DNA from: Candidatus Xenobia bacterium
GTDB lineage: Bacteria > Vulcanimicrobiota > Xenobia > Xenobiales > QWHO01
Reading direction: 5' to 3'
DNA length: 64,000 bases
Assembly: GCA_045863235.1 (NCBI GenBank)
Contig: BTUM01000038.1
Coordinates: 9,263-73,262 of the forward strand
Below the pieces are notes generated by a model that was not told where the DNA came from, ran no database searches, and worked only from the letters and a program-made list of their open reading frames with translations. The translations under genes were made by a program, and so were the position numbers. Position 1 is the first letter of the stretch. Each line of letters starts with the position of its first letter. Shown piece by piece: positions 5,585 to 38,698 of the stretch.

Positions 5585-7269
5585 TGGCTTTGCACCGGCG
5601 CCGACTGCTCCTCGAACGAGCCGCCCGAGCCCGAGCGGGTGAAGTTGCCCACGCGCTCGGACTCGAGCAGGTAGCCGGCCGAGCCGTTGCGGGCGTAAGT
5701 AAACTCCAAGCTCGGCGGGCGGACGGGGCGGGGGAGGCCGCCCAGGTTGGCGGGGTAGCGGCCGTGGGCCTGGTGGTAGGCGTCCAGGGCCAGCACGGTC
5801 TTGAGGAAGGCGAGGCGGTGCTGGAGGCGCGCCCAGTTCCTGACGACTATCGGCCATGAGGTGGCGGCGAAGACGTGGGCGGGGCGGGTGAGCTCGGGTA
5901 GCCGGGCGGGGGCGCCGCAGCGGGCCAGCACGGGGCGAAAGGCGCGATACTGCTGGCCCAGCAGCTCGCGCTCGGCTTCCCAGTCGCTCACCTTCATCCC
6001 CTCGAAGAGCTCTTTCAGGCTCTCGGGCAGCTTGCCGTCCCGGGCGGCCCTGAAGTAGGCGCGATCCCAGAAGGCCCATTCGAAGTCGGCGGCCAGCAGC
6101 AGGTTCTCGGGAGGGAAGAGCTTGCCGACCCGGGCCAGCATCCGGGCAGAGTCGGGGGCGGGGCGGGCGGCCAGCTCACCGAGCAGGGCCTTGATGGAGT
6201 CGCCGGCCAGGGTGGCGGCCACCATGTCGAGCACGACGGGGCGTCGGCCCGAGAGGCGGGCGGACATCTCCAGACCCAGCATGATCAGCTCGCTATCGTG
6301 GGTGTTGCGGCCGTAGACGATGAGGCTGCGGTTCAGGTTGCGGATGGCCACCAGGTTGGGCACCGGATCCTCCCAGCCGGGCTCGGCTCCGATGGGATAG
6401 GCGAGGGCCGGCTTGCTCAGGGCGGCGCGGAGTCCCGGCAGCAGGGCGGCGAAGGCGGAGAGGTCCTCCGCTTTGGGAGGAGACTCGAAATTCTTGCCCA
6501 GCGCCAGATACGGGGCGGCCTTCTCCTCCACGAACAGGTCCTTGGTGCCGATCACTTCAACCAGGTCGAGGTAGCCGTTCTCGGCCTCGGGGGCCTGGTT
6601 GCGGCGGCGGCAATCGGCCAGCACGGCCTCGACGCTGGCCAGCTCGGCGGGGGAGGGCTCCTTCAGCACGCCCCGGCCGGAGGAGATGCCCAGGGCCTGA
6701 TGGCTGCCCTCCTCACAGAGCAGGGTGTAGGCATCCGGCCCCTGAGACAGGGCGTAGACATCGCTGTACGTGTCGCGGTTGGCCACGGGGCAGGCCGGGA
6801 CGGGCGTGGTGAGCTCGCTGAGCTGGGCGGGATAGGCCCCCTCGTGCTCGGTGGAGTAGAGCTCGAGGGCCACCATGAGGTTGGACATGTTCTCCAGGCA
6901 GAGCCGATCGCTGCCGGTGTAAAGAGCCCGGAAGTCGCAGGTGATCTCCCCGGCCACGTAGCTCGGCGTATCCTCTCCCTGACCGGGGTGGTGGGCGCCC
7001 TTGCAGGAGAGAAGGTAGTCGGGAGCGGCCGGATCGCTGGGACCGATGTACCCGGCCGAGTAGGTATCGCTGCCAGCGGCGGGACAGGAGGGCAGGCTCA
7101 TTCCCAGCTCCGTGAGGCTGGCCGGATAGCTGCCGGTGCGGGCAAAGTGGGCCTCCAGGGCATCGCCCAGCGTGTTCAGGTTGACGATGCAGCCCTTCAG
7201 GTCGGCTACCGGGTCAGCCAGGGCCGGACTGCACAGGATGATGATCAGGACGAGCAGGAAACGGTGCAC
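5581..7269 (-). CDS. Secreted protein with repeated GspG/pseudopilin-like modules
   Basis: Sec-type signal; two copies of C..N..L..ALE....G.YP..L.EL...P.CP.A..DTYS..Y...Y.L.C and a third ALDAYHQAHGRYPANL module. Confidence 0.7.
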   Translation of the reverse strand: MHRFLLVLIIILCSPALADPVADLKGCIVNLNTLGDALEAHFARTGSYPASLTELGMSLPSCPAAGSDTYSAGYIGPSDPAAPDYLLSCKGAHHPGQGEDTPSYVAGEITCDFRALYTGSDRLCLENMSNLMVALELYSTEHEGAYPAQLSELTTPVPACPVANRDTYSDVYALSQGPDAYTLLCEEGSHQALGISSGRGVLKEPSPAELASVEAVLADCRRRNQAPEAENGYLDLVEVIGTKDLFVEEKAAPYLALGKNFESPPKAEDLSAFAALLPGLRAALSKPALAYPIGAEPGWEDPVPNLVAIRNLNRSLIVYGRNTHDSELIMLGLEMSARLSGRRPVVLDMVAATLAGDSIKALLGELAARPAPDSARMLARVGKLFPPENLLLAADFEWAFWDRAYFRAARDGKLPESLKELFEGMKVSDWEAERELLGQQYRAFRPVLARCGAPARLPELTRPAHVFAATSWPIVVRNWARLQHRLAFLKTVLALDAYHQAHGRYPANLGGLPRPVRPPSLEFTYARNGSAGYLLESERVGNFTRSGSGGSFEEQSAPVQSH

Positions 7270-27816: not shown

Positions 27817-27864
27817 TCCCCACCAGAGCCCGACCGGGCTCAATCGAACAGGGGAGTTCGTGTG

Positions 27865-30800
27865 ATGCGTCATTTTGAGTTCAGTGAGGGAAGCTCCAAC
27901 AAATTCTGGGAGATCGACCTTCAGGGAGACAGTTTCGTGGTGCGCTGGGGGAAGATCGGGACGGCCGGACAGAGCCAGACCAAGAGCTTTGCCAGTGAAG
28001 CCAGGGCTCAGCTCGAGCACGACAAGCTGATCGCTGAGAAGGTGGGGAAGGGGTATCAGGAGACGGGAGGGGCCGCGCCCGGAACCCCTGCCCCCAGAGC
28101 TGCTGCCCCGGCCCCGGCCCCCAGAGCTGCTGCTCCGGCCCCCAAAGCTGCTCCGGTCCAGGCAGCCACGGCGGTGCTGGAGCGACCAGCCTCCGACCAG
28201 GGTCTCCACTGGAGCCCCTCGGCTCGTAAACGCATCCTCCCCTACCAGGGCATGAGCTCGCCTCCGACCGCGCCCAAGACCGATCTGAAGAAGGCCAGGG
28301 CTCTGCTGGACGAGTTGCGCAACATCATCACTTCCGTCGAGGTCAAGCACTTCGATCCGGCCTTCCAGGCGCTGGCCGATCCGGTCAAGGCTCGATTTTC
28401 CGACGTGACCGGCCCTCTGCACGAGAATCCCGAGGTGGAAGCCGGCCTGGCCGTGTGCCTGGCCATGAACGACAACTTCTGGTCCAGGTCCGAGGACGTC
28501 GGGACCGCTGCCGTGCACCTGTGGTGCGCCGAACGAGGGGTGGTCTTTGCCACCCGGGCCCTGGCGGCGACCTTCAGCATGGGGACGGGCTACGCCAGTC
28601 CGGGTAACTCTCAGGGAGCCTTCCTGGCTGCCCGCGGCAACAAGTACGGCTGGGACCGCACCTGCTTTGGCCCGCTCAAGACCCTGCGGGGCCTGCTGGC
28701 GGCCAGCTCCCCGGGAGACTACGCCCAGGCTCGGGAGGCGGTGGCCCCACTGTTCGCGACCGCTCCCAACTTTGTCCGCTGTAATCTGGCTTTTCTCTTT
28801 CCGGACCGTGAGGATTGGGCCGAGCAGGCGTTTGACGAAGGCCCCGAGATCCACAACCTCGTCAACCTGATGGCCAGTTTGCGCGATCCGCTCCGATTGG
28901 GGACGATCGCGACCAAACTGGCGGCGGCTCCGGGCTACATCCCCTCGGTTCCGCTCGAAGTGGTTCCGACCATGGTCGACCGGGTGGGCCCACCGGCCTG
29001 GAAGACCGTCCACATCCTGTTGAGCGCTGCTGAGAAGGCTGACAACAAGCGTTTCCTGGCCGACAGCCTGCTGGCCATCCACTGGCCCGAGGTGGCCGAG
29101 GTCTTCGCCGGACTGCTCAAGGACAAGGTGCTGGGCGCGCAGGCCAACGAGTTCTTCCAGGCCGCGCCCGAGGTGGGGCTGCCCGTGCTGGCGGCCCAGA
29201 AGTCGAGCGAAGCCCAGGCCCTGGTGCAGCGGTTGGCGGCCGCCAATCCCGAGGCGGCCAGGGCCGCCCTGGGTCAGGCCGATGGAGCGGCTCAGCGCCA
29301 GCTGGAGCAGAAGCTTGCCAGCCAGCAGGCCCAGGCCTCCGTGCCGGTGGCCCCGGCGAGCGCCCTGCCACCCAGCCTGGCGGCTCCCCCCTGGCTGGGC
29401 TCGGGCAGCCAGAAGCTGCCCGTGGTCAAGGGCCTGAGCGTGCCAGCTGGCCCCGAGGAGGTGCGCTGGGCCCCCGGTGAGCGCGAGAAGGCGCTGGGCA
29501 AGCCGGAGGTCCACCACGGCAAGGACGAGGACAAGCTGTTCGCGCTCTTCGAGGAGTTTCGGGCCAAACAGAAGGGCTGGTTCGTGGAGCGGCTGTTGCA
29601 GTTCTCCAATAAGGACCGGGCCGTCAAGATCTGGAGCACCTACCCTCCGGATTTCTGGAATCAGTACGACTTGCGAGGGGATGACAACCCCGCGCTGGGC
29701 CTGCTGGCCTTTCTGGGGTTGGACGCGGTGGACGGACTGCTGGGAGTGCTCAAGATGGCACCAGACAATCTCCACGTCGTGCTCTCTCACGTGTCCAGCC
29801 CGCGTCTGGCCCAGCTCTTCGCTGAGGCTCTGCAGGGCAAGAAGCAGAAGGTTGTGGCCCAGCAGTGGTTGACCCGCAACGTCCGCGTCGCCTCGCTGGG
29901 GCTCGTCCCCATCGCCGTCGGGCCGCACGGGAAAGCCCGCCAGACGGCCGAGAACGCTTTGCGTTACCTGGCCAGCAAGGGCCACAGGGACATGGTGTTG
30001 CACGTGGCCAACCAGGAGTTCGGCGCCGAGGCCCGCGAGGCGGTCAGCGTGGTGCTGGCCAGCGATCCGCGCCTGGCTCCCGGAATCAAGCTCCCGGCCA
30101 GGCCTGCCTGGCTCGAGCCGGCCGCTCTGCCGCCCGTGCAGTTGAAGGCGGGTGGGCGCCTGAGTCCGGAAGCGGTGGGACACCTGCTGACCATGCTCAG
30201 CCTGTCCACTCTGGAGGACCCGCTTCCCTGCCTGGCCGAGGTCCACGAAGGCTGTACCCGGGCGTCCTTGAGCGAGTTTGCCTGGGAGCTCTTCAGCGCC
30301 TGGCTCAACAGCGGGGGACCGAGCAAGGACGCGTGGGCTTACAACGCTCTGGGCCTCATTGGAGGGGATGAAGCCGCTCGCAGGCTGACGCCGATGCTTC
30401 GCAAGTGGCCTGGCGAGGGCTTCAGCTCGCGCGCCGCCGATGGGCTCGAGGTGCTGGCCGCGATCGGCAGCGACCTGGCCCTGATGCACCTCAACTCGCT
30501 GGCCGAGAAGCTGCGTTTCAAAGCGCTGCAGGACAAAGCCCGAGCCAAGATCACCGCCCTGGCCGAGGAGCGCGGCCTGACGGTGGAAGAGCTGGCCGAC
30601 CGCCTGGCCCCCGACCTCGACCTGGAAGCGGACGGTTCGCGCAAGCTCGATTTCGGTCCGCGCCACTTCCGGGTGGGCTTCGATGAGCAGTTGCGTCCCT
30701 TCGTCTTGGATGAAGCGGGCAAGCGGCAAAGCGACCTGCCCAAGCCAGGCAAGGCCGACGACTCGGCCCTTGCCTCCGAAGCTCAGGAAGTCTGGAAGGC

Positions 30801-31491
30801 GCTCAAGAAGGATGTCAAGGCGGTCGCCTCCTCGCAACTGACGCGCCTGGAGGTGGCTCTGATGCGACGTCGGCGCTGGAGCGTCGAGAACTTCCGGATG
30901 TTCATGGTGGAGCACCCGCTGGTGTTCCACCTGGCCCGGCGTCTGGTGTGGGGCAGCTACGACGAGTCCGGAAAGCTGACCGGAGCCTTCCGGGTGGCCG
31001 AGGATCGCAGCCTGGCAGACTTGAAGGATCGCCCGTTCGAGCCGGGCGCCAGGGTGGGGCTGGTGCACCCGCTGGAGCTGACCGAGGAGACCATCGGGGC
31101 CTGGGCCCGGCTGCTGGGCGACTACGAGTTGCTGCAACCCTTCCCGCAGCTGGGACGGCCAGTGTTCCGCCCCACCCCGGCCGAAGCCCGTTCCAACGAG
31201 CTGACCCGCTTTGCTGACCGGAAGGTCAAGTCGGGCTCGGTGCTGGGCCTGGAGAACCGCGGCTGGCGCCGGGGCTACGTCGAGAGCGGTGTGGTGACCG
31301 AGCTGATCTGGCCGACCGAGCTGGGCGACGCGCGCCTGGAGCTCGATCCGGGCGTCTACCTGCCCGAGCCGCCCGTGAACCCGATCCAGAGCGTGGCGCT
31401 CAAACTGCCGGGCGAACACCGGATCTCCGAGCTCGACCCGGTGACCTTCAGCGAGCTGGCCATGGCCATCGACCAGCTGGCCCAGGCGTAA
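27865..31491 (+). CDS. WGR + DUF4132 domain protein (MolR-like)
   Basis: N-terminal WGR (SNKFWEI...VRWGKIGTAGQ); C-terminal DUF4132-like region (LADRLAPDLDL...HPLVFHLARRLVWG...QPFPQLGR). Confidence 0.9.
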   Translation: MRHFEFSEGSSNKFWEIDLQGDSFVVRWGKIGTAGQSQTKSFASEARAQLEHDKLIAEKVGKGYQETGGAAPGTPAPRAAAPAPAPRAAAPAPKAAPVQAATAVLERPASDQGLHWSPSARKRILPYQGMSSPPTAPKTDLKKARALLDELRNIITSVEVKHFDPAFQALADPVKARFSDVTGPLHENPEVEAGLAVCLAMNDNFWSRSEDVGTAAVHLWCAERGVVFATRALAATFSMGTGYASPGNSQGAFLAARGNKYGWDRTCFGPLKTLRGLLAASSPGDYAQAREAVAPLFATAPNFVRCNLAFLFPDREDWAEQAFDEGPEIHNLVNLMASLRDPLRLGTIATKLAAAPGYIPSVPLEVVPTMVDRVGPPAWKTVHILLSAAEKADNKRFLADSLLAIHWPEVAEVFAGLLKDKVLGAQANEFFQAAPEVGLPVLAAQKSSEAQALVQRLAAANPEAARAALGQADGAAQRQLEQKLASQQAQASVPVAPASALPPSLAAPPWLGSGSQKLPVVKGLSVPAGPEEVRWAPGEREKALGKPEVHHGKDEDKLFALFEEFRAKQKGWFVERLLQFSNKDRAVKIWSTYPPDFWNQYDLRGDDNPALGLLAFLGLDAVDGLLGVLKMAPDNLHVVLSHVSSPRLAQLFAEALQGKKQKVVAQQWLTRNVRVASLGLVPIAVGPHGKARQTAENALRYLASKGHRDMVLHVANQEFGAEAREAVSVVLASDPRLAPGIKLPARPAWLEPAALPPVQLKAGGRLSPEAVGHLLTMLSLSTLEDPLPCLAEVHEGCTRASLSEFAWELFSAWLNSGGPSKDAWAYNALGLIGGDEAARRLTPMLRKWPGEGFSSRAADGLEVLAAIGSDLALMHLNSLAEKLRFKALQDKARAKITALAEERGLTVEELADRLAPDLDLEADGSRKLDFGPRHFRVGFDEQLRPFVLDEAGKRQSDLPKPGKADDSALASEAQEVWKALKKDVKAVASSQLTRLEVALMRRRRWSVENFRMFMVEHPLVFHLARRLVWGSYDESGKLTGAFRVAEDRSLADLKDRPFEPGARVGLVHPLELTEETIGAWARLLGDYELLQPFPQLGRPVFRPTPAEARSNELTRFADRKVKSGSVLGLENRGWRRGYVESGVVTELIWPTELGDARLELDPGVYLPEPPVNPIQSVALKLPGEHRISELDPVTFSELAMAIDQLAQA

Positions 31492-31601: not shown

Positions 31602-32831
31602 ATGCGAAAACGACTTGGCGTTGTCGGAGTTGGCTCGGCGGGCGTTCTCAGCCTGATTCACTTCTGCACCTGGCTCAACAACGATTGGGAGATCGTTTCG
31701 ATCTACGACCCCAACAAGAAGATCCTGGGCATCGGCGAGAGCACCAACGGCGGATTCGTGGGCCTGCTCGAGAAGGGCACCCACTTCGCGCTGGGCCACC
31801 CCAAGGACCTTGACGCCCTGGATGCCACCCTCAAGTTCGGCAGCCGCTTCGTGAACTGGCGCGAGCACTCATGGGTCAACCCTCTGCTTGACGGCAACAC
31901 GGCCATCCACTTCAACAACTTCTTCTTCAAGGACTTTGCCTTCGAGCGCCTGCGCAAGCTGTGGCCCAAGAAGTTCACCGTGCTCGAGGGCAACGTCTCC
32001 AGCATGGTCAACCACGAGGACCGGGTCACCCTGACCGTGGACGGATCCGACCACGACTTTGACTACGTGCTCGACTGCATGGGCTTTCCGCCTGATTTCG
32101 AGGGTTACCACATCAGCGACTGCTCGCCGGTGAACCACTGCCTGATCCACAGCCAGCTGCCCGGCGAGTTCACCTACGAGCCTTACACCGACCACATCGC
32201 TCACGAGAACGGCTGGATGTTCGGCGTGCCGCTGCAGTCGCGCAAGACCTTCGGCTACATGTTCAACAATAAGATCACCGACAAGGCTGAGGCCGAAGCG
32301 GATATGATGCGCATTCTCAAGACGCAGAAGATCGACGGCGAGGTGGGCCGTGGCATCAAGACGCCCGAATACGTCTTCAGCTGCTACTACGCCAAGCAGA
32401 TGATCGACGGGCGCATCGGCAAGAACGGCAACAAAGCGCTCTTCTTCGAGCCCCTGATCGCCAACTCCATTTTCATCTATATCTACACCGCCCGCCTGTT
32501 CTACGATTACGTCAACGGGGTGGCCAACCACATCGACATCAACCGCGCCTTCGTCAAGGCTGTGCAAGAGATGGAAGACGTGATCACTTACTACTACCAG
32601 GGCGGCTCCCTCTACGACTCGGAGTTCTGGCGCTACGCCGTGCCGGCCGCCAAGAAGCGCTTGGAGACGAGAGGCGAGTTCAAGCAGCTCATGGCTTTGT
32701 TCCGCAACCTGAAGAACCAGGGCATCCTGCACCACGGGCCCACCTATGCCTTCCAACCGCTGACCTGGGAGATCGTGGACGAGGCTCTGGGCTACGGCTT
32801 CATCGAGGAGAAGCAGAAGGCCGCGGTCTAA
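31602..32831 (+). CDS. Flavin-dependent tryptophan-halogenase-like protein (short form)
   Basis: GVGSAG FAD motif, IGEST, ATLKFG, GWMFGVP (WxWxIP-like), FFEPL. Confidence 0.8.
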   Translation: MRKRLGVVGVGSAGVLSLIHFCTWLNNDWEIVSIYDPNKKILGIGESTNGGFVGLLEKGTHFALGHPKDLDALDATLKFGSRFVNWREHSWVNPLLDGNTAIHFNNFFFKDFAFERLRKLWPKKFTVLEGNVSSMVNHEDRVTLTVDGSDHDFDYVLDCMGFPPDFEGYHISDCSPVNHCLIHSQLPGEFTYEPYTDHIAHENGWMFGVPLQSRKTFGYMFNNKITDKAEAEADMMRILKTQKIDGEVGRGIKTPEYVFSCYYAKQMIDGRIGKNGNKALFFEPLIANSIFIYIYTARLFYDYVNGVANHIDINRAFVKAVQEMEDVITYYYQGGSLYDSEFWRYAVPAAKKRLETRGEFKQLMALFRNLKNQGILHHGPTYAFQPLTWEIVDEALGYGFIEEKQKAAV

Positions 32832-32890: not shown

Positions 32891-34243
32891 TCAGGAGGTG
32901 GCGCGCGGCCCGGGGGAAGGCCGCCAGGCTTCGTTGAGGCGGTGGGGCAACTGCTCCAGGGCCCGCACGCACGAGCCGTCCTCGCGGCGGCGCACCAGCT
33001 CGACCCCTTCCGGGCTCAGCATGACCACCGCGGGCCGCAGCTGGATGAACTGCATCGACTGAGAGAAGTTGTACGCGCCCACCTTGCGGATCAGCACCGG
33101 ATCGCCGCGCCGCAAGGGGGGCAGCGACACTCCCAGTTGCAGGCAGTCGATCTGCATGCACAAAGGTCCGAACACGTCCACTTCTTCCAGCAGCCCGCCC
33201 GAGTCCACCCCGGGCACGATCTCGTGGCGATACCAGGCCGAGGTGTAGAGCAGGTTGACGCCCGCGTCCAGCACCAGCGCCCGCCGGCCTTCACCGCGCC
33301 GCCGGTTGGAGAGCACCCGGCAACCCAGGTGCATGGCCTCATCCACCAGCGAGCGGCCCGGCTCGAGGAACAGGGTGGGCAGGTCGAGCTCGGAGCTGAG
33401 CAGGCGCGAGCAGATCTCCTCGGCGTACTGCTCAAACGAGGGGCAGGCATACTCGGCCGGCATCCAGGAGCCGTGGAGCACATTCTTGCTCGCAAAGCCT
33501 CCGCCCAGGTCGAGCCACTCGATCTTCACCCCGAAGTCGCTCTTGAGCTTCTGCAGGAAGGGGATCAGCTTGCCCAGCGCCTTGCCGTAAACGCTCGGGT
33601 CGGTGAGGTAGGTGCCCAGGTGGCAGTGGATCCCCTTGAGCTCGAGGTGGGCGCTTGAAGCCAGCCAGCGCACCGCCTCCAGGGCCTGGCCCGACTCGAG
33701 GTTGAAGCCGAATCGGTCCCAGGGCTGGGAGTTGACCTGAAGATTGATGCGGATGCCCATGGGGGTGCGCCGGGTGGCCAGGCTCTCCATCTCCGAGAGC
33801 TCCTCCAGGCAGTCGGCGTGGATGCGGGCGCCCTCCTCCATGGCCCGGCGCAACTCTTCCTTGCGCTTGCAGGGGCCGTTGAACACGATGCGCTCGCCCG
33901 GCACGCCCAGCGTGCGGGCGTGGTCATACTCGAAGCCCGAGACCACCTCGGCCCAGGCTCCCTCCTGGTGCAGGATCGAGCACACCGAGGAGAGGTAGTT
34001 GGTCTTGTAGGAGTAGGCGATCACCGTGCGCGGATAGCGCCGGCTGAAAGCTTCCTGCAGGCGTCGATAGCTGTCGCGCAGGGTGGCTTCACTGAGGAGC
34101 CAGAGGGGCGAGCCGAACTCCTCGAGCAGCATGGTCAGGGCCCGGCCCTCGACGTGGGTCTGAGGGCGGGTGGAGTGGCTGCGGCCGAACTGGTTCATGA
34201 CTCCCACCGCGTGTCGGGTGATGCTGGGGCGCTCATAACTCAT
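32891..34243 (-). CDS. Diaminopimelate-decarboxylase-like PLP enzyme (fold type III)
   Basis: YSYKTN (PLP Lys), AEVVSGFE, FNGPCK, HCHLGT, LDLGGG, EPGRSLV, GPLCMQID, VGAY. Confidence 0.9.
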   Translation of the reverse strand: MSYERPSITRHAVGVMNQFGRSHSTRPQTHVEGRALTMLLEEFGSPLWLLSEATLRDSYRRLQEAFSRRYPRTVIAYSYKTNYLSSVCSILHQEGAWAEVVSGFEYDHARTLGVPGERIVFNGPCKRKEELRRAMEEGARIHADCLEELSEMESLATRRTPMGIRINLQVNSQPWDRFGFNLESGQALEAVRWLASSAHLELKGIHCHLGTYLTDPSVYGKALGKLIPFLQKLKSDFGVKIEWLDLGGGFASKNVLHGSWMPAEYACPSFEQYAEEICSRLLSSELDLPTLFLEPGRSLVDEAMHLGCRVLSNRRRGEGRRALVLDAGVNLLYTSAWYRHEIVPGVDSGGLLEEVDVFGPLCMQIDCLQLGVSLPPLRRGDPVLIRKVGAYNFSQSMQFIQLRPAVVMLSPEGVELVRRREDGSCVRALEQLPHRLNEAWRPSPGPRATS

Positions 34244-35286
34244 GGCGTCAGGAGCTCTCCTTTCATAGTGAGGCTTTCCAGGTTTTGCAGGGGACAGACC
34301 ACGTCCACCGAGTGGCGCACGAAGGTCAGTCCGGTCTGGTAATTGCCGGCTGGCTCGGGCTCGACGCCCAGGGCCACCTCGGCCACCCGGGCAGGCAGGT
34401 TGAGGCCGCAGGCGGCCGCCAGGTAGACCCAGGAGGGGAAGCGCGGATTGATCTCGATCAGCCGGAAGGTGTTGTCCTTCTCGCTGAGCAGGAACTCGAA
34501 CTCGAGCGGACCCACCCAGCTCAGGTCCTTGAGGGCCTTCTCGGTCAGCTCGAGCAGACGCGGATGGCAGACCGACACGCCGGCCCAGGCGGTGCCCTTG
34601 GGGGTCACGCGCAACTTGCGCATGGCCACCATTCCCAGGGAATCGCCCTGGCGGTCGGCGGCTGCCACCACGTCGTACTCTTCGCCCGCGTAGTGGCGTT
34701 GCAGCACCACCGGCGAGCCCCACTGGCGCTCGATCTCGCGAAAGCGCACCCGCGCTTCCTCCAGGCTGTGGGCCAGCACGGCGCCGTGAAACAGGCCCTT
34801 GACCACGATGGGCAGACCGAGCTTTTGAACGGCGCCGGGGAGTGCTTCGACGCTGAAGGCCACCTCGGTCTCCGGGTGGGGCAGGTCGTGCTCTTCGCAG
34901 AACCTGGCCAGGTTGGCCTTGGAGCGCAGGGCCAGCACCTCGGGGCGAGGCAGCAAGGTGGCGATCCCCATCTCGTTGAGTCGGCGGCTGAGCGAGCAGA
35001 AGGCCATCAGCTCCGAGTCCAGGGTGGGCAGAATCAGGTCGAGCGGGGTGCGCCGGTGGACCTCCTCCAGGCGCTGCATCAGGGCCAGCTCGCCTTCGCT
35101 GGGGTAGGGAAGGAGGAACGCCTCGTTGAGCAGCCCGCGGCTGTGGATGCCAGTATCCAGGGCGTCGTAGCCCAGCCCCACCACCCGGATCTCGGGGAAC
35201 ATCTTGCGCAGGCAGCGGGCCACGGCCAGCCCGGGAGCGGGGTTGTCGGCCGAATTGAGGCCGGTGACGGCGATGGTTACGTGCAC
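34240..35286 (-). CDS. ATP-grasp (carboxylate-amine ligase) protein
   Basis: AVTGLNSADNPAPG, PIVVKG, GPLEFEF, LIEINPRFPSW. Confidence 0.9.
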   Translation of the reverse strand: MHVTIAVTGLNSADNPAPGLAVARCLRKMFPEIRVVGLGYDALDTGIHSRGLLNEAFLLPYPSEGELALMQRLEEVHRRTPLDLILPTLDSELMAFCSLSRRLNEMGIATLLPRPEVLALRSKANLARFCEEHDLPHPETEVAFSVEALPGAVQKLGLPIVVKGLFHGAVLAHSLEEARVRFREIERQWGSPVVLQRHYAGEEYDVVAAADRQGDSLGMVAMRKLRVTPKGTAWAGVSVCHPRLLELTEKALKDLSWVGPLEFEFLLSEKDNTFRLIEINPRFPSWVYLAAACGLNLPARVAEVALGVEPEPAGNYQTGLTFVRHSVDVVCPLQNLESLTMKGELLTP

Positions 35287-35546
35287 GGGGCACCTCCAAG
35301 TCCGAGTCGCTCCAGGTTGTCCAGGAAGTAGCCCACGTCCACCGCCGCTACCTCGGGCGCCAGTCCGAAGTGCTGAGCGAACTGCAGGGTCAGAAGGTCG
35401 GGCGGAGTTCCGTTGCGGATCCCGTCATAGAGGAAGCGGCCCGAGTCATTGAGCACGTAAGTGTGCCCGGTCTGGGGCTCGAACAAGAAGCCCGTCTCTG
35501 CTGCGGGGGGGAGGCTCTGCTGTTGCCAGCCGGAGAGCTGCTTCAT
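35277..35546 (-). CDS. PqqD family / RiPP recognition element protein
   Basis: 89 aa; GFLFEPQTGHTYVLNDSGRFLY...AAVDVGYFLDNLERLGL matches the PqqD pattern. Confidence 0.85.
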   Translation of the reverse strand: MKQLSGWQQQSLPPAAETGFLFEPQTGHTYVLNDSGRFLYDGIRNGTPPDLLTLQFAQHFGLAPEVAAVDVGYFLDNLERLGLGGAPCT

Positions 35547-35935
35547 TTCGAGGCCCTCGTGATGGCGCCGGCGTGGTAGGCGCGCATGCCTTCCATGTGG
35601 TAGCCGTTCAGCTTGCACCAGCTGCATTTGGTGGGACAGCTCGAGCGGCTGACGCGGCGGTCCCAGAGGGCCATCTCGTAGCGACCGCCCGGAGTCAGGC
35701 TGACCCGGAACACTTCCTGCAGCGAGCCCGCCTGCACCTGACGGACCTGGTGCCAGCCCTTGGAGTCGGTGGGGCTGTAGACCGAGATCCCGATCCAGCC
35801 CGTCTTCTCGCAGTTTCCGGTGACGGTGAGCGAGGTGGTGGTGAGCCGGGCGGTCAGCGATTCGCGGCTGGCCGCCGTGGCCATCAGGGTACTGGCCAGC
35901 AGCACCGCTGCCAGCATCAAGGATTTTCTTGTCAT
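35543..35935 (-). CDS. Small secreted protein with CxxxCxxC motif
   Basis: Signal peptide MTRKSLMLAAVLLASTLMATA; ATGA overlaps at both ends; CPTKCSWC. Confidence 0.75.
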   Translation of the reverse strand: MTRKSLMLAAVLLASTLMATAASRESLTARLTTTSLTVTGNCEKTGWIGISVYSPTDSKGWHQVRQVQAGSLQEVFRVSLTPGGRYEMALWDRRVSRSSCPTKCSWCKLNGYHMEGMRAYHAGAITRASK

Positions 35936-37233
35936 GCCGTCCTCCTGATTCGTTGGCCAGCCTCCGGACGGCCCGTGCGGACCGGCCGGCGCTCGACCTG
36001 GTAGTCTTGAAAGCGGGTGGGAAGGGTGGGGGCCCCGGGCCAGGGCTCGGCCTGGAGCTGGATGTGCAGGTGGGGCTCGCAGGAGTAGCCCGAGTTGCCG
36101 CAGCGTCCCAGCAGTTGGCCGCGCTCGACCCGCTGGCCCAACTCCACCACCAGGCTGCCCTGGCGGAAGTGGCTCAGCTCGGTGTAGAGCCCGTTGCCGT
36201 GCGAGAGCACCACCAGGTTGCCCCAGTTGGCGAAGACGTTGGGCTGGCCGGGCGGATTGTCGGGCACGTCGTTGACCAGGGCCACCACCACCCCGGCCGC
36301 GGGTGCGGCCACGGGCAGGTCGTAGCAGTAGTAGTCCTGCAAGGAGAGGCCGCTGCCGCGGTGGCTGCGCCCGGCCGAGTCGAGCACGATGAAGTCCCAG
36401 GCCTCGTTCCAGGGGCCCACGTGGGTCCAGCCGCCGTCGGGGGGCTGGCACACCGTCCACTCACCCCAGAAGGGCAAGGTCCAGGGCACCTGACGCCACC
36501 AGGGGGCAGAGTAGCGAGCCCAGCGCGCCTCGGGGGTCTCGAGTTGGAGCACCTTGCGCTTGCCGGCCAGGGCGGCCACCAGGTGCAGGGGCAGCACGAA
36601 GACAGGCAGCGCCAGCCAGGCCAGGGCGCTGGCCACCAGGCCGCTCAGGGCCGCACCCGCCAGCGCTCGGGCCAGGGTGGCCAGACCGGGGGGCGCGAAC
36701 ACCCCGCCCAGCACCACGGCCGTCAGACCGCCGTTGAAGAGGGCCTCGGGCCGTGAGCTGACCGCGGCGGCGGTCAGGCCCCCCAGCAGCAAGAGAAAAG
36801 CGAAGTAGCGGCTGGTCAGGGCTACGGCCAGCAGGCAGACCAGTGCCGAGGGCAGGTCGGGACGGAAGACCACCGCCCCCAGAGGGGTCAACAGGTGGTC
36901 GCCCAGGGGGGGAGCGGCCGGGGGGCCGAGCAGGAACCAGGCCGGGTAGGCCACCAGCAGAAAGCCCCAGGCCATGGTGAGGTGGGGGAGGAGCAGGCGC
37001 AGACCGATCAGGGCCAGAGCCAGCCACGGCAGGGGCCATCCGGCCCAGCCCCAGAGCAGTCCGAGCAGGATGGAGTTGCAGGCGGCGACAGGGCCGCGGG
37101 GGGCGGCCAGGCCAGCGGCCAGACCGATCAGGCCGGGGGCCGGGTCGAGCAGGGTCAGGGCCAGCAGGGCTGCTCCGCTGGCGGGGCGATCGGCCCCCAG
37201 AATCAGCCCGTAGCCACGCAGCAGGGTTTGCAT
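35932..37233 (-). CDS. Urea-transporter-like membrane domain fused to an M23 peptidase domain
   Basis: Hydrophobic N-terminal region (LLRGYGLIL, CNSILLG, LGAVVFRP, FNGGLTAVVLGG); M23 motifs H(x)6WD, PVAAPAAGVV, WGNLVVLSH, LSHFRQGS, CGNSG...PHLHIQ. Confidence 0.8.
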   Translation of the reverse strand: MQTLLRGYGLILGADRPASGAALLALTLLDPAPGLIGLAAGLAAPRGPVAACNSILLGLLWGWAGWPLPWLALALIGLRLLLPHLTMAWGFLLVAYPAWFLLGPPAAPPLGDHLLTPLGAVVFRPDLPSALVCLLAVALTSRYFAFLLLLGGLTAAAVSSRPEALFNGGLTAVVLGGVFAPPGLATLARALAGAALSGLVASALAWLALPVFVLPLHLVAALAGKRKVLQLETPEARWARYSAPWWRQVPWTLPFWGEWTVCQPPDGGWTHVGPWNEAWDFIVLDSAGRSHRGSGLSLQDYYCYDLPVAAPAAGVVVALVNDVPDNPPGQPNVFANWGNLVVLSHGNGLYTELSHFRQGSLVVELGQRVERGQLLGRCGNSGYSCEPHLHIQLQAEPWPGAPTLPTRFQDYQVERRPVRTGRPEAGQRIRRTA

Positions 37234-37346
37234 GCTCTGAGCTTAGCGCTCGGAGGTTTCGGGCCGACCCGCAAATGTATCGAAATCGTAGCAGACCTTT
37301 TTGCCTATCCTTCGGGGGCGCCTGTCGGCGCCGGCTTCAGGCCACC

Positions 37347-37413
37347 CTCTTTGGAGTCGAGCACCAGCGCCTCTTCGTCCTGCTGCAGGTCGAGCCGTTT
37401 GAGGGCGGCTCCC
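37347..37413 (-). pseudogene. Short diverged duplicate of the 3' part of gene 37961-38698
   Basis: Encodes GAALKRLDLQQDEEALVLDSKE versus GEALKRLDLQQDDEALVLDSKN at ~38045-38111. Confidence 0.75.
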
Positions 37414-37643
37414 GAGCTTCGCGGAACAATCCTCACGCCCGTACCAGGGCGTCAGGAAGCCTTGCCTTCCGTCTCGAGCCATCTGCGCGACCTGCTCGAG
37501 CCGAGCGTCCGCCCCACGGTGATCCTCGTGGGAAGCGGACGAATCCTCTCGAACCTCGTGTTCCACGTGGCGACCACGGGATCCAGGTGCTCGAAGGCCC
37601 CTGCGTCGACTTCCTGGTCAGCGAGCAGGGCGACAAGCGCGCG

Positions 37644-37889
37644 TTAGGCGGCTGGCGGGTTCTCCAGCTGCTCGAGACCAGCCACGAGTTGGGTCAACTC
37701 CTGAACGGTATCTTTCGTTTCTGCTGCATGGGCACGAATCGTTGCCTCCTGCTCGAGGAAGGCCAGGCGCACCTGGTCGAAGCCGTTCTCCATGATCTGC
37801 CGCTGGCTGGTCAGGACTAGCTCGGTGTGCCTCTGGTTTCTATCCAGCCGGGCATCGATTCTTTCCAAGCGCTTCCTGAATTCTTCCAT
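37644..37889 (-). CDS. Small coiled-coil hypothetical protein
   Basis: GAGGAGG RBS, ATG, 81 aa with heptad pattern. Confidence 0.65.
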   Translation of the reverse strand: MEEFRKRLERIDARLDRNQRHTELVLTSQRQIMENGFDQVRLAFLEQEATIRAHAAETKDTVQELTQLVAGLEQLENPPAA

Positions 37890-37960
37890 ATGCCGCCTCC
37901 TCGCTCCATTTAATCACAGCAGGTCGTCTCAGCCAAGTCTAAAGGAGCCCAAGCTGGATT

Positions 37961-38698
37961 TCAGCCCAGGCCGCCCTCCAGCACCAGCCGGTTGCCCTGC
38001 GTGCCCAGCTGGGTCAGCTTGACCTCGAGACCGGGAGGCAGCAGGTTCTTCGAGTCGAGCACCAGCGCTTCGTCGTCTTGCTGCAGATCGAGCCTCTTGA
38101 GTGCCTCGCCGGCCAGGGCCTGGGCGATGGTCAGAGCCAGGCGAGGGACCGGCAACCCCATCACTTTCACGCGCTCGGGAGTAAAGCGGAACTTCTGGTC
38201 GGCGGTCAACTCCAGCCTGCCCCGCAGGGTGAAGGGGACGCTGGCCAGCTTGTGCAGCACGCCTTTGACCTGAACCAGGCCGCCTGGCTCGAAGGCAAAA
38301 CTGACCTCTTTGAGTCCTTCTCGCGCCAGCACCGCGGCCCCGCCCGTACGGACCGCCTCGGTGGCCACCAGGGCCGGAATGCCCAGTCGCACCCTGCGGA
38401 TGCGAACCGGACCCCTGCTCAGAAGCCGGGCGGGCTCGGCCAGGAGCTCGGGGGGAATCTCCTGGTCCATCTCGGCGCTCAGCTCCTCGACGTGCACTCC
38501 CGACAGGGTCAGATCACGAATTTCGAGCTTGTTTCCCTGAAGGTCGAACTGGGCGGCCGGCCCCGCGGCGTGACGGTTGGCCAGCTCGGCCTGCAGCTGC
38601 TGGTTGGGAGCCGGGCGAGAGATCGGGTTGTCCTCGGGAGCCGGGTTGGAAGCTCCGAACCGCTGCCGGGCAGCTTGCATCGGGTCGCGAAAGAGCAC
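37961..38698 (-). CDS. Hypothetical protein (LmeA/DUF2993-like beta-strand pattern)
   Basis: VQVKGVL...VPFTLRGRLEL...VKVMGLPVP; family assignment tentative. Confidence 0.6.
   Translation of the reverse strand: MLFRDPMQAARQRFGASNPAPEDNPISRPAPNQQLQAELANRHAAGPAAQFDLQGNKLEIRDLTLSGVHVEELSAEMDQEIPPELLAEPARLLSRGPVRIRRVRLGIPALVATEAVRTGGAAVLAREGLKEVSFAFEPGGLVQVKGVLHKLASVPFTLRGRLELTADQKFRFTPERVKVMGLPVPRLALTIAQALAGEALKRLDLQQDDEALVLDSKNLLPPGLEVKLTQLGTQGNRLVLEGGLG

Follow-up and report, generated by a model that had tools for sequence, protein, structure and literature searches.

The locus described here raises the question of what a stand-alone PqqD/RRE protein recognizes when it is encoded together with a ligase, a decarboxylase and a membrane protein, and of what such genes make together. 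The following features were identified in the window (the whole 64,000-nucleotide stretch of DNA analysed), the last being the N-terminal segment of g5, here termed the tail.

g1, 35932..37233, minus strand: 433 aa; shortened urea-transporter (UT)-fold membrane domain with a C-terminal M23 Zn-peptidase domain
g2, 35543..35935, minus strand: 130 aa; exported beta-rich CxxxCxxC protein of about 12 kDa, unnamed family
g3, 35277..35546, minus strand: 89 aa; stand-alone PqqD/RRE of the lasso B1 type
g4, 34240..35286, minus strand: 348 aa, GTG start; ATP-grasp ligase, PRK12767-like
g5, 32891..34243, minus strand: 450 aa; alanine-racemase-fold PLP decarboxylase of FslC-like type
Leader-like tail of g5, 34178..34243, minus strand: residues 1-22; YxxPxI, then G14, N17, Q18, F19 and G20

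Gene content and conservation of the operon

The gene set and its junctions, as originally described, were confirmed on the window sequence, with ATGA overlaps joining g1 to g2, g2 to g3 and g4 to g5, and an overlap of 10 nt between g3 and g4. Relatives of the system were found at 410 loci in one genome collection, and neighbouring genes were counted among the best 80 of these. The neighbours recur in most of the 80 loci and in many phyla, as the original prediction had anticipated, with an ATP-grasp gene at 78, a PqqD gene at 71 and a UT-like gene at 58. Given this recurrence across phyla and dN/dS values of 0.17-0.34 for all five genes (against a same-genus relative), the five overlapping genes are a real operon, more than a chance grouping. 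Contigs from RNA runs spanned genes and intergenic DNA equally at low depth and gave no evidence of expression. Promoter and terminator scans returned matches at chance level only, and plasmid searches returned matches no better than the ordinary LysA level.

The domains previously assigned (UT, M23, PqqD, ATP-grasp and decarboxylase) were all recovered using Pfam, with the addition of a fold model for g4. For g1, Peptidase_M23 was matched at 55 bits (cut-off 28.7) and UT weakly at 26.6 bits (cut-off 25). The M23 zinc ligands and catalytic His (H271, D280, H355, H388 and H390) are each 98% conserved among 54 aligned sequences, with a His-Asp spacing longer than the HxxxD usual for M23 enzymes. 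As with the urea transporters dvUT and UT-A/B, full-length relatives of g1 can be aligned across the whole UT domain, which identifies the UT fold by sequence. In contrast to those transporters, the g1 family carries a fused C-terminal M23 or Sir2 domain and has mostly lost the Q-T-T-Q permeation motif; in g1 this reads L/T/A/V, with one of four residues kept, and among 59 sequences the pore positions hold Gln in 18, Thr in 4, Gln outside the four commonest residues and Thr in 7. The window copy is also shortened: compared with a full-length relative, 80 of the first 319 positions are missing, approximately a quarter of the domain.

In UT proteins the termini lie inside the cell (PMC11589576), a topology that probably places the fused M23 domain in the cytoplasm. 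The position of M23 is taken by an NAD-dependent Sir2 domain in variant loci with two ligases, which argues against cell-wall cleavage. The processing outside the cell or at the cell wall that had been proposed for M23 is therefore not favoured.

The product of g2 possesses an N-terminal segment resembling a signal peptide (by inspection) and cysteines spaced as C100-x3-C104-x2-C107, hence CxxxCxxC and not CxxxCxC. No convincing match for its family was found in Pfam, PDB or Atlas; weak Pfam matches (best E 0.0026, shared by at most 4 of 32 members) were rejected, and an Atlas model of a relative gave weak beta-sandwich-like matches (TM 0.5-0.6). Of the 80 loci, 23 have the gene; it was also found in 7 of 101 genomes from one phylum, in each case beside the system, and is repeated six times at locus L009. 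Judged from sequence and occurrence, g2 is a dedicated but optional accessory of the system. Exported partners vary freely between loci, with TPR and beta-barrel proteins found elsewhere in place of g2.

Active sites of the decarboxylase and the ligase

Analysis of g5 gave a Pfam match to the Orn/DAP/Arg decarboxylases (135.6 bits) and a best PDB sequence match to the N-citrylornithine decarboxylase 7KH2 (190 bits), while its score for FslC (NF041039) was 194.7 bits, under the cut-off of 500. It has the Schiff-base Lys, His, Gly loop, Glu, Arg, Cys and fold of a fold-III PLP decarboxylase, its key residues being K80, H208, G247-G249, E294, R297, C362-M363 and Y391, in motifs invariant among 74 sequences. 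The residue following the catalytic Cys is Met in all 74, compared with Glu in 1TWI, and g5 reads CMQID where LysA reads CESSD. C362-M363 corresponds to C354-M355 of FigC, in which Met replaces the amine-binding acid. The active site thus resembles, by sequence comparison, that of FslC-type enzymes acting on acylated amino acids. The citrate-binding H357 and R387 of FigC are I365 and Q395 in g5, so this likeness names no substrate. Decarboxylation had been placed before ligation in the original prediction; the replacement by Met of the acid that grips a free side-chain amine, as in FigC/FslC, points instead to ligation first.

Matches of g4 to the Pfam ATP-grasp families fell just under their cut-offs, and the fold model (pLDDT 93.9) confirmed an ATP-grasp fold. 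Invariant residues are K123, K163, E203, E262, E264, E278, N280 and R282, and PylC-like_N matches were found in two homologues. The nearest characterized folds are the L-amino-acid ligases (3VOT, Z 25.3) and PylC (Z 24.4), at approximately 15% identity, but the uncharacterized 2PN1 is much closer (Z 31.2). The fold is nearer to small-molecule amide ligases than to the peptide-modifying LysX, RimK and PsnB. Graspetide clusters are defined by a RimK-like ligase and a precursor with core repeats of Asp/Glu and Ser/Thr/Lys; this assignment was rejected, with the graspetide ligase PsnB only 47th in the fold search (Z 15.1) and no precursor found.

The RRE and the leader-like tail

That g3 is a PqqD/RRE protein was borne out by a Pfam match to PqqD (PF05402) of 34.3 bits against a cut-off of 23.4, and by its nearest solved sequences, TbiB1, TfuB1, PbaB1 and LppB, which are from lasso B1-leader complexes. 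Its leader-pocket residues are N33, invariant among 63 sequences, and D70 and F74, each at least 90% conserved; it thereby retains the Asn and Asp that in LppB hydrogen-bond the Pro kink and Tyr hydroxyl of the leader.

A separate short precursor gene would be expected of an RRE-dependent RiPP cluster, and none carrying the leader motif was found to recur at the 80 loci, where the motif occurred in 12 of 6451 short ORFs with no conserved family among them. In the window it occurred in 0 of 233 short ORFs, in agreement with the earlier observation that no precursor peptide is evident there. The motif was, however, found on the decarboxylase: the lasso-type form [YWF]xxPx[ILVF] starts 72 of 73 full-length g5 homologues, against a background in the organism's own genome of 72 (loose) or 7 (strict) of 4011 long ORFs. 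The tail of g5 matches the published RRE-recognized motif [Y/W]xxPx[L/V/I/F/A], as given in PMC13381572. Residues 8-21 are predicted with pLDDT below 50, and yet the tail has a dN/dS of 0.06-0.08 compared with 0.16 for the catalytic core (same-genus relative).

Among 20 fetched relatives, the tail and a PqqD gene were found together at 11 of 11 loci and PqqD at 0 of 9 tail-less ones, a split that does not amount to 20 independent events, as the tail-bearing enzymes are largely one clade (the genome set for the tail-less comparison was 401 genomes, one unscored). A metagenome scan was of no use as a tail-less control, since its matches were 12 further members with the tail and a single locus without it, a short one. 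At the FslC-type control locus L133, IucA/IucC, MFS and Fur genes were present and the tail and RRE were not found. Where the tail motif has Tyr, the RRE residue at the D70 position is Asp in 58 of 59 cases, and where it has Trp, in 28 of 34; with Phe tails the residue is Tyr in 8 of 8, all of one clade and so a single event. When the RRE columns were scanned for Tyr/Trp covariation, lineage and end gaps dominated the outcome.

A complex model of g3 with the g5 tail scored 0.40, against 0.00 for the best control, with runs at least 94% alike and a partner pLDDT of 50. Of 157 solved pairs, 116 reached the mark, as did 2 of 215 mismatched ones, only 18 of the solved pairs and both mismatches standing at 0.60 or less. 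As similar complexes are already solved, the score may reflect memorized structures, and the model lends weak support to binding. The separate RRE-bound peptide originally supposed is thus not borne out, and the RRE ligand is likely to be the N-terminal tail of g5, a segment that the original prediction had itself listed for modelling with PqqD.

A candidate amide-building pathway and its alternatives

The closest parallels each share part of this arrangement. Lasso B1 and LppB proteins are, like g3, stand-alone RREs with equal pocket residues and a [Y/W]xxPx[hydrophobic] motif as ligand, but here the motif lies on a 450-aa enzyme instead of a short precursor, and the lasso cyclase and B2 protease are absent among the recurring neighbours. 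The rhizoferrin FigA/FigC (FslA/FslC) and SbnH-type steps likewise use an amide ligase and, after it, an alanine-racemase-fold decarboxylase that has a Cys-Met specificity loop, although the ligase there is an NIS synthetase and here an ATP-grasp enzyme, the citrate-binding residues are lost here, and nothing in that system corresponds to the RRE, the tail or the UT fusion. In butirosin biosynthesis (BtrI/BtrJ/BtrK), where BtrJ is an ATP-grasp-type ligase, a decarboxylase likewise acts on a ligated amino acid, carrier-bound in that case; no acyl carrier protein was found among the recurring neighbours here, and g5 matched BtrK at 94 bits compared with 190 for FslC. Full-text searches on the gene combination found no description of the system, and it is unmentioned in the accessible parts of PMC7470986, PMC8939145, PMC12710340 and PMC13381572, the supplements of which may list such RREs. 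The operon is probably an undescribed amide-building pathway.

Our preferred explanation, to which we give a little short of an even chance, is that the PqqD protein binds the g5 tail and holds the decarboxylase beside the ligase, the pair making an amine-ended amide by ligation and then decarboxylation. Its basis is the observed gene set, tail motif, co-occurrence of tail and RRE, intact catalytic residues and separate lysA. Using ATP, g4 would ligate an amino acid at its side chain, most probably by acylation of the omega-amine of Lys or Orn by a neutral acyl donor (following PylC/FslC logic), or alternatively by joining Glu via its gamma-carboxyl (BtrJ logic), after which g5 would strip the alpha-carboxyl from the ligated residue. 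At the inner face of the UT-like protein, the M23 domain (or Sir2 in the variant) may cut an amide, trimming or releasing the product at the membrane, and the exported accessory (g2, or elsewhere the TPR and beta-barrel proteins) may handle product or signal outside. Export through the UT pore of g1 is doubtful, as the pore is narrow and roughly a quarter of the domain is missing from the window copy. Because the window tail has no Lys, it would be a docking tag and not an acyl carrier. A docking role alone does not account for the Lys kept at tail positions 15-18 in 90 of 101 loci, nor for its presence in 7 of 7 Sir2 loci despite differing flanking residues.

This Lys is central to a second explanation, possible but rather less probable, in which the tail is both leader and core: the ligase would charge the Lys with an amino acid such as gamma-Glu, the RRE would present the tail, the decarboxylase would work on its own tethered cargo, and M23 or Sir2 would free that cargo for export. 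Sir2 enzymes act on peptide-bound acyl-lysine, which agrees with such a route, and the Lys lies approximately 16 residues past the leader Tyr, near the start of a RiPP core. Leader residues of RiPP precursors are numbered Y-16 and W-15 in PMC13381572, and BtrK provides a precedent in decarboxylating carrier-bound glutamate (PMC7857480). The window tail, however, has Gln (Q18) at this position, and yet purifying selection acts on this tail more strongly than on the core; the Lys is absent in about four separate lineages (on a quick tree), and the g4 fold has its closer neighbours among small-molecule ligases, with LysX, RimK and PsnB more distant. Lys-less copies, including that of the window, would have to be altered or use another acceptor. 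In its furthest form, equally probable, this second explanation would make a metabolic enzyme its own RiPP-style precursor and carrier, with the channel-fused hydrolase (M23 or Sir2) releasing the cargo for export via periplasmic and outer-membrane partners, possibly as a repeated polyamide unit. An unlikely alternative is regulatory, with the ligase and membrane hydrolase adding and removing a mark on the tail (or clipping it) and so switching the decarboxylase according to an external cue, for which the exported accessory and the UT-like protein would be the sensors. The interchangeable hydrolase (M23, Sir2, or Sir2 plus GNAT at locus L032), the fusion of the RRE to a TetR-type domain at L048 and similar loci, the freely varying exported partners and the unkept urea-pore residues fit a regulatory role, but the g5 site suits an acylated substrate, for which the ligase is required as supplier, the window tail lacks Lys, and the two-ligase variants resemble a longer biosynthetic route. 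The mechanism of the original prediction, in which g4 attaches a free amine made by g5 to an RRE-bound peptide, g2 or a cell-wall peptide, is improbable: the combination of RRE, ligase and peptidase is reminiscent of RiPP clusters, and g2, repeated six times at L009, lies directly upstream of the RRE gene, but no precursor ORF recurs, g2 lacks the leader motif and is confined to a minority of loci, Met363 argues against a free basic substrate, and M23 is probably cytoplasmic. Least credible of all is a housekeeping lysA among chance neighbours. LysA (TIGR01048) is the top NCBIfam match of g5 and LysA structures tie with FslC in its fold search, but the match of 224.7 bits is below the 297.9 cut-off, CMQID replaces CESSD, synteny is strong, and a true lysA that passes TIGR01048 (315 bits) was found within an 852-aa frame on contig C39, so that g5 is not the housekeeping lysA, in keeping with the original prediction. 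None of the outcomes named there as refuting (genes not co-conserved elsewhere, g5 as the sole true lysA, an 89-aa protein without the PqqD fold) was observed.

RREs serve as handles for finding peptide precursors. Many have no assigned precursor (PMC12710340, section 7). For g3, it is the N-terminus of a full-size enzyme that seems to be the missing ligand. The pathway, annotated as lysA, is widespread, with 410 relatives in a single genome collection, and in it a urea-channel fold is joined to an M23 or Sir2 hydrolase that is probably cytoplasmic. The window copy, naturally without the tail Lys, helps to tell docking from carriage. If the explanation is true, the leader-RRE code would have been reused for enzyme docking or self-carriage, and the mining of orphan RREs would change.

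Organisation and distribution of the operon

The five minus-strand genes of the original prediction, which overlap by ATGA at three junctions and by 10 nt at the fourth, were recovered on contig C38, of which the window is a part, in a genome of 8.4 Mb. Searches with Pfam and NCBIfam assigned four of them to families and gave no convincing family match for g2.

35932..37233, minus strand: g1, UT (urea transporter)-like domain and M23
35543..35935, minus strand: g2, secreted CxxxCxxC protein
35277..35546, minus strand: g3, PqqD (RRE)
34240..35286, minus strand: g4, ATP-grasp ligase
32891..34243, minus strand: g5, fold-III PLP decarboxylase
31602-32831, plus strand: tryptophan-halogenase-family gene, convergent with g5
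27862-31491, plus strand: WGR and DUF4132 protein, 1209 aa (Pfam)

Compared with a same-genus relative, all five genes gave dN/dS values of 0.17-0.34. The halogenase-family gene was placed outside the system, as among the fetched loci it was present only in this genome and its closest relative. Just before g1, a 56-bp repeat (37351-37406, 86% identical) copies a part (38049-38104) of the upstream 245-aa gene. An 81-aa coiled-coil ORF (37644-37889), of which the genome holds three paralogues, may have been inserted recently, since a contig of one sequencing run skips 37340-37978.

Scanning a genome collection with g5 matched 434 stretches, 410 of them encoding a relative, and the best 80 of these 410 were analysed. 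They were found in Bacteroidota, Chloroflexota, Fidelibacterota, Calditrichota, Myxococcota, Thermodesulfobacteriota, Pseudomonadota, Nitrospirota and others. At these 80 loci the ATP-grasp gene was identified at 78 and a UT-like gene at 58 (TBLASTN), and the RRE at 71 (HMM); seven of the nine RRE-negative loci lie at contig edges, L009 has its RRE (98 bits) on another contig, and L014 is the remaining miss. Accessory genes differed between these loci: 37 have TPR proteins and 23 the g2 family, with predicted beta-barrel and FG-GAP/FlgD proteins also represented. The UT gene heads the operon in the lineage of the window and comes after the decarboxylase in most relatives. Strong g5 matches occurred in 12 of 41 related genomes, with none in one same-genus genome that is 90% complete. 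Two loci labelled Burkholderiales (L001, L003) are 97% identical to g5 of the window, and this label may be wrong. In the tree, operons of some Fidelibacterota (L126-L130) cluster with Bacteroidota, and operons from a genus allied to the host group (L086-L091) cluster with Pseudomonadota, a pattern suggestive of repeated horizontal transfer.

The g2 family, which carries no name, numbers 53 database proteins. Its Gly and Trp positions are invariant, and its cysteines are common but missing in four homologues. Among 101 genomes of one phylum, 12 carry the system and seven carry g2, always directly upstream of the RRE; the other five system-bearing genomes had no g2 match, three of them possessing TPR/barrel-type partners. 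Therefore g2 is dedicated to the system yet optional, and it probably does not serve as substrate of the RRE. L009 encodes six g2 domains over two ORFs. In one genome (G013) UT-M23 and g2 share a single uninterrupted frame, a fusion that may be recent or artefactual as a ribosome-binding site and ATG stand at the junction.

The decarboxylase tail and the RRE of the operon

Approximately 28 residues precede the fold of g5. The motif [YWF]x[KR]Px[ILVF], after which H, G and then NK[FY]G usually come, was found in this tail in 72 of 73 full-length homologues, the sole miss being cut by a contig end; its background in the genome of the window was 72 of 4011 long ORFs for the loose form and 7 for the strict form. 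It equals [Y/W]xxPx[L/V/I/F/A], described in PMC13381572 and PMC12710340 as the sequence that lasso and LPP RREs recognise. In the monomer model the tail has no structure, yet it is under tighter constraint than the core (dN/dS 0.06 over 32 codons versus 0.16).

The nearest structures to g3 are TbiB1, TfuB1, PbaB1 and LppB. Its N33 and D70 align with PbaB1 G42 and Q79, the equivalent positions in LppB being N33 and D70, which contact the Pro kink and the Tyr hydroxyl of the leader according to PMC13381572. The RRE Asp is kept with 58/59 Tyr tails and 28/34 Trp tails, and is replaced by Tyr with 8/8 Phe tails, all of one clade. For a control, a search through 400 scored genomes belonging to one proteobacterial class yielded 20 matches, and the 19 new ones were tested together with one from Chloroflexota. 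An RRE was located upstream of all 11 tail-bearing enzymes, which as kin are not independent, and at none of nine tail-less loci, some of them short (six-frame HMM scan, and Pfam on 48 of 103 listed ORFs). Modelling g3 with the tail scored 0.40 against 0.00 for the best control, with runs agreeing to at least 94% and the partner at pLDDT 50, weak support that may reflect memory of like complexes already solved; in the benchmark 116 of 157 solved and 2 of 215 mismatched pairs reached the mark, 18 solved pairs and both mismatches lying at or below 0.60. We consider it likely that the g3 RRE binds the g5 tail.

Other arrangements were also observed. In Zetaproteobacteria loci (including L048, 6090-6908) the RRE is fused with a TetR-type DNA-binding domain (~270 aa), and in L037 a signal-peptide protein with Pro/Gly-rich repeats (5850-6155) lies upstream of the RRE. 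The genome of the window holds four more PqqD-family matches (contigs C46, C55, C10 and C103).

Predicted activities of the enzymes and membrane protein

The best PDB sequence match of g5 was the N-citrylornithine decarboxylase FigC/FslC (190 bits, against 167 for LysA and 94 for BtrK), with LysA and FslC tying in the fold search. The PLP residues and Met363, next after the catalytic Cys, are invariant in 74 g5-family sequences. PMC7857480 describes an acid at this position that grips the side-chain amine of the substrate, FigC having Met355 instead. As g5 shares this replacement, its substrate would lack a free distal amine, and as H357 and R387, which contact citrate in FigC, are I365 and Q395 in g5, it would not be citrylated. 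Judging from these residues, the substrate is probably an amino acid that has first been ligated via its side chain, contrary to the proposed order in which decarboxylation precedes ligation. Elsewhere, a tail-less g5 relative with a CNQAD loop (L132, 945-5542; L134, 115-4482) adjoins a Lys/Orn monooxygenase, a MetRS-like protein and a cupin, forming another cluster in two genomes. Tail-less decarboxylases near a distant ATP-grasp with no RRE match (L146, L147, L149, L150) are possible RRE-free sister pathways.

The nucleotide- and metal-binding residues of g4 are invariant in 54 sequences. Its predicted structure (pLDDT 93.9) most resembles 2PN1, an uncharacterised protein (Z 31.2, rmsd 2.3, 301 aligned). 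Next come an L-amino-acid ligase (25.3), a biotin carboxylase domain (24.6) and PylC (24.4), followed by PurK and GAR synthetase. Because these rank above the peptide-type ligases LysX (19.6), RimK (17.9-19.1) and PsnB (15.1), the model leans towards small-molecule amide formation; the fold names no particular substrate.

Full-length g1 relatives align with urea transporters along the whole domain, but urea-permeation residues are mostly lost in the family, the window copy lacking 80 of 319 positions, and an M23 or Sir2 partner is added. The M23 metal ligands are conserved, and by analogy this domain is probably cytoplasmic, as both UT termini are intracellular (PMC11589576). At two-ligase loci (L032, L041, L053, L078, L142, L143) Sir2 takes the place of M23, fused or adjacent, and is once joined by a GNAT domain. 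From these features we read g1 as a putative amide hydrolase anchored in the membrane; whether the product passes through its pore is uncertain.

Candidate mechanisms and relation to known systems

The leading mechanism, held tentatively, is that the RRE would dock on the g5 tail and thereby couple ligase and decarboxylase. Its main rival, somewhat less likely, is that the tail lysine serves as a carrier loaded with cargo: this Lys is kept in 90/101 loci and 7/7 tabulated Sir2 loci, but is Gln in the genome of the window and missing in about four lineages. A regulatory cascade is improbable. The separate RRE-bound peptide originally put forward is more doubtful still, no recurring short precursor ORF having been found around g5 homologues at the best 80 of 410 loci. 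That g5 is lysA can scarcely be credited; a true lysA on contig C39 passes the TIGR01048 cut-off and g5 falls below it, in agreement with the original view of g5 as distinct from the housekeeping gene.

Searches of an open-access library, covering main texts, turned up no description of this system. Its parts are known, and RRE docking on a pathway enzyme, together with a UT-fold protein bearing an inner M23 or Sir2 domain, would be a combination that fits none of the families tested.
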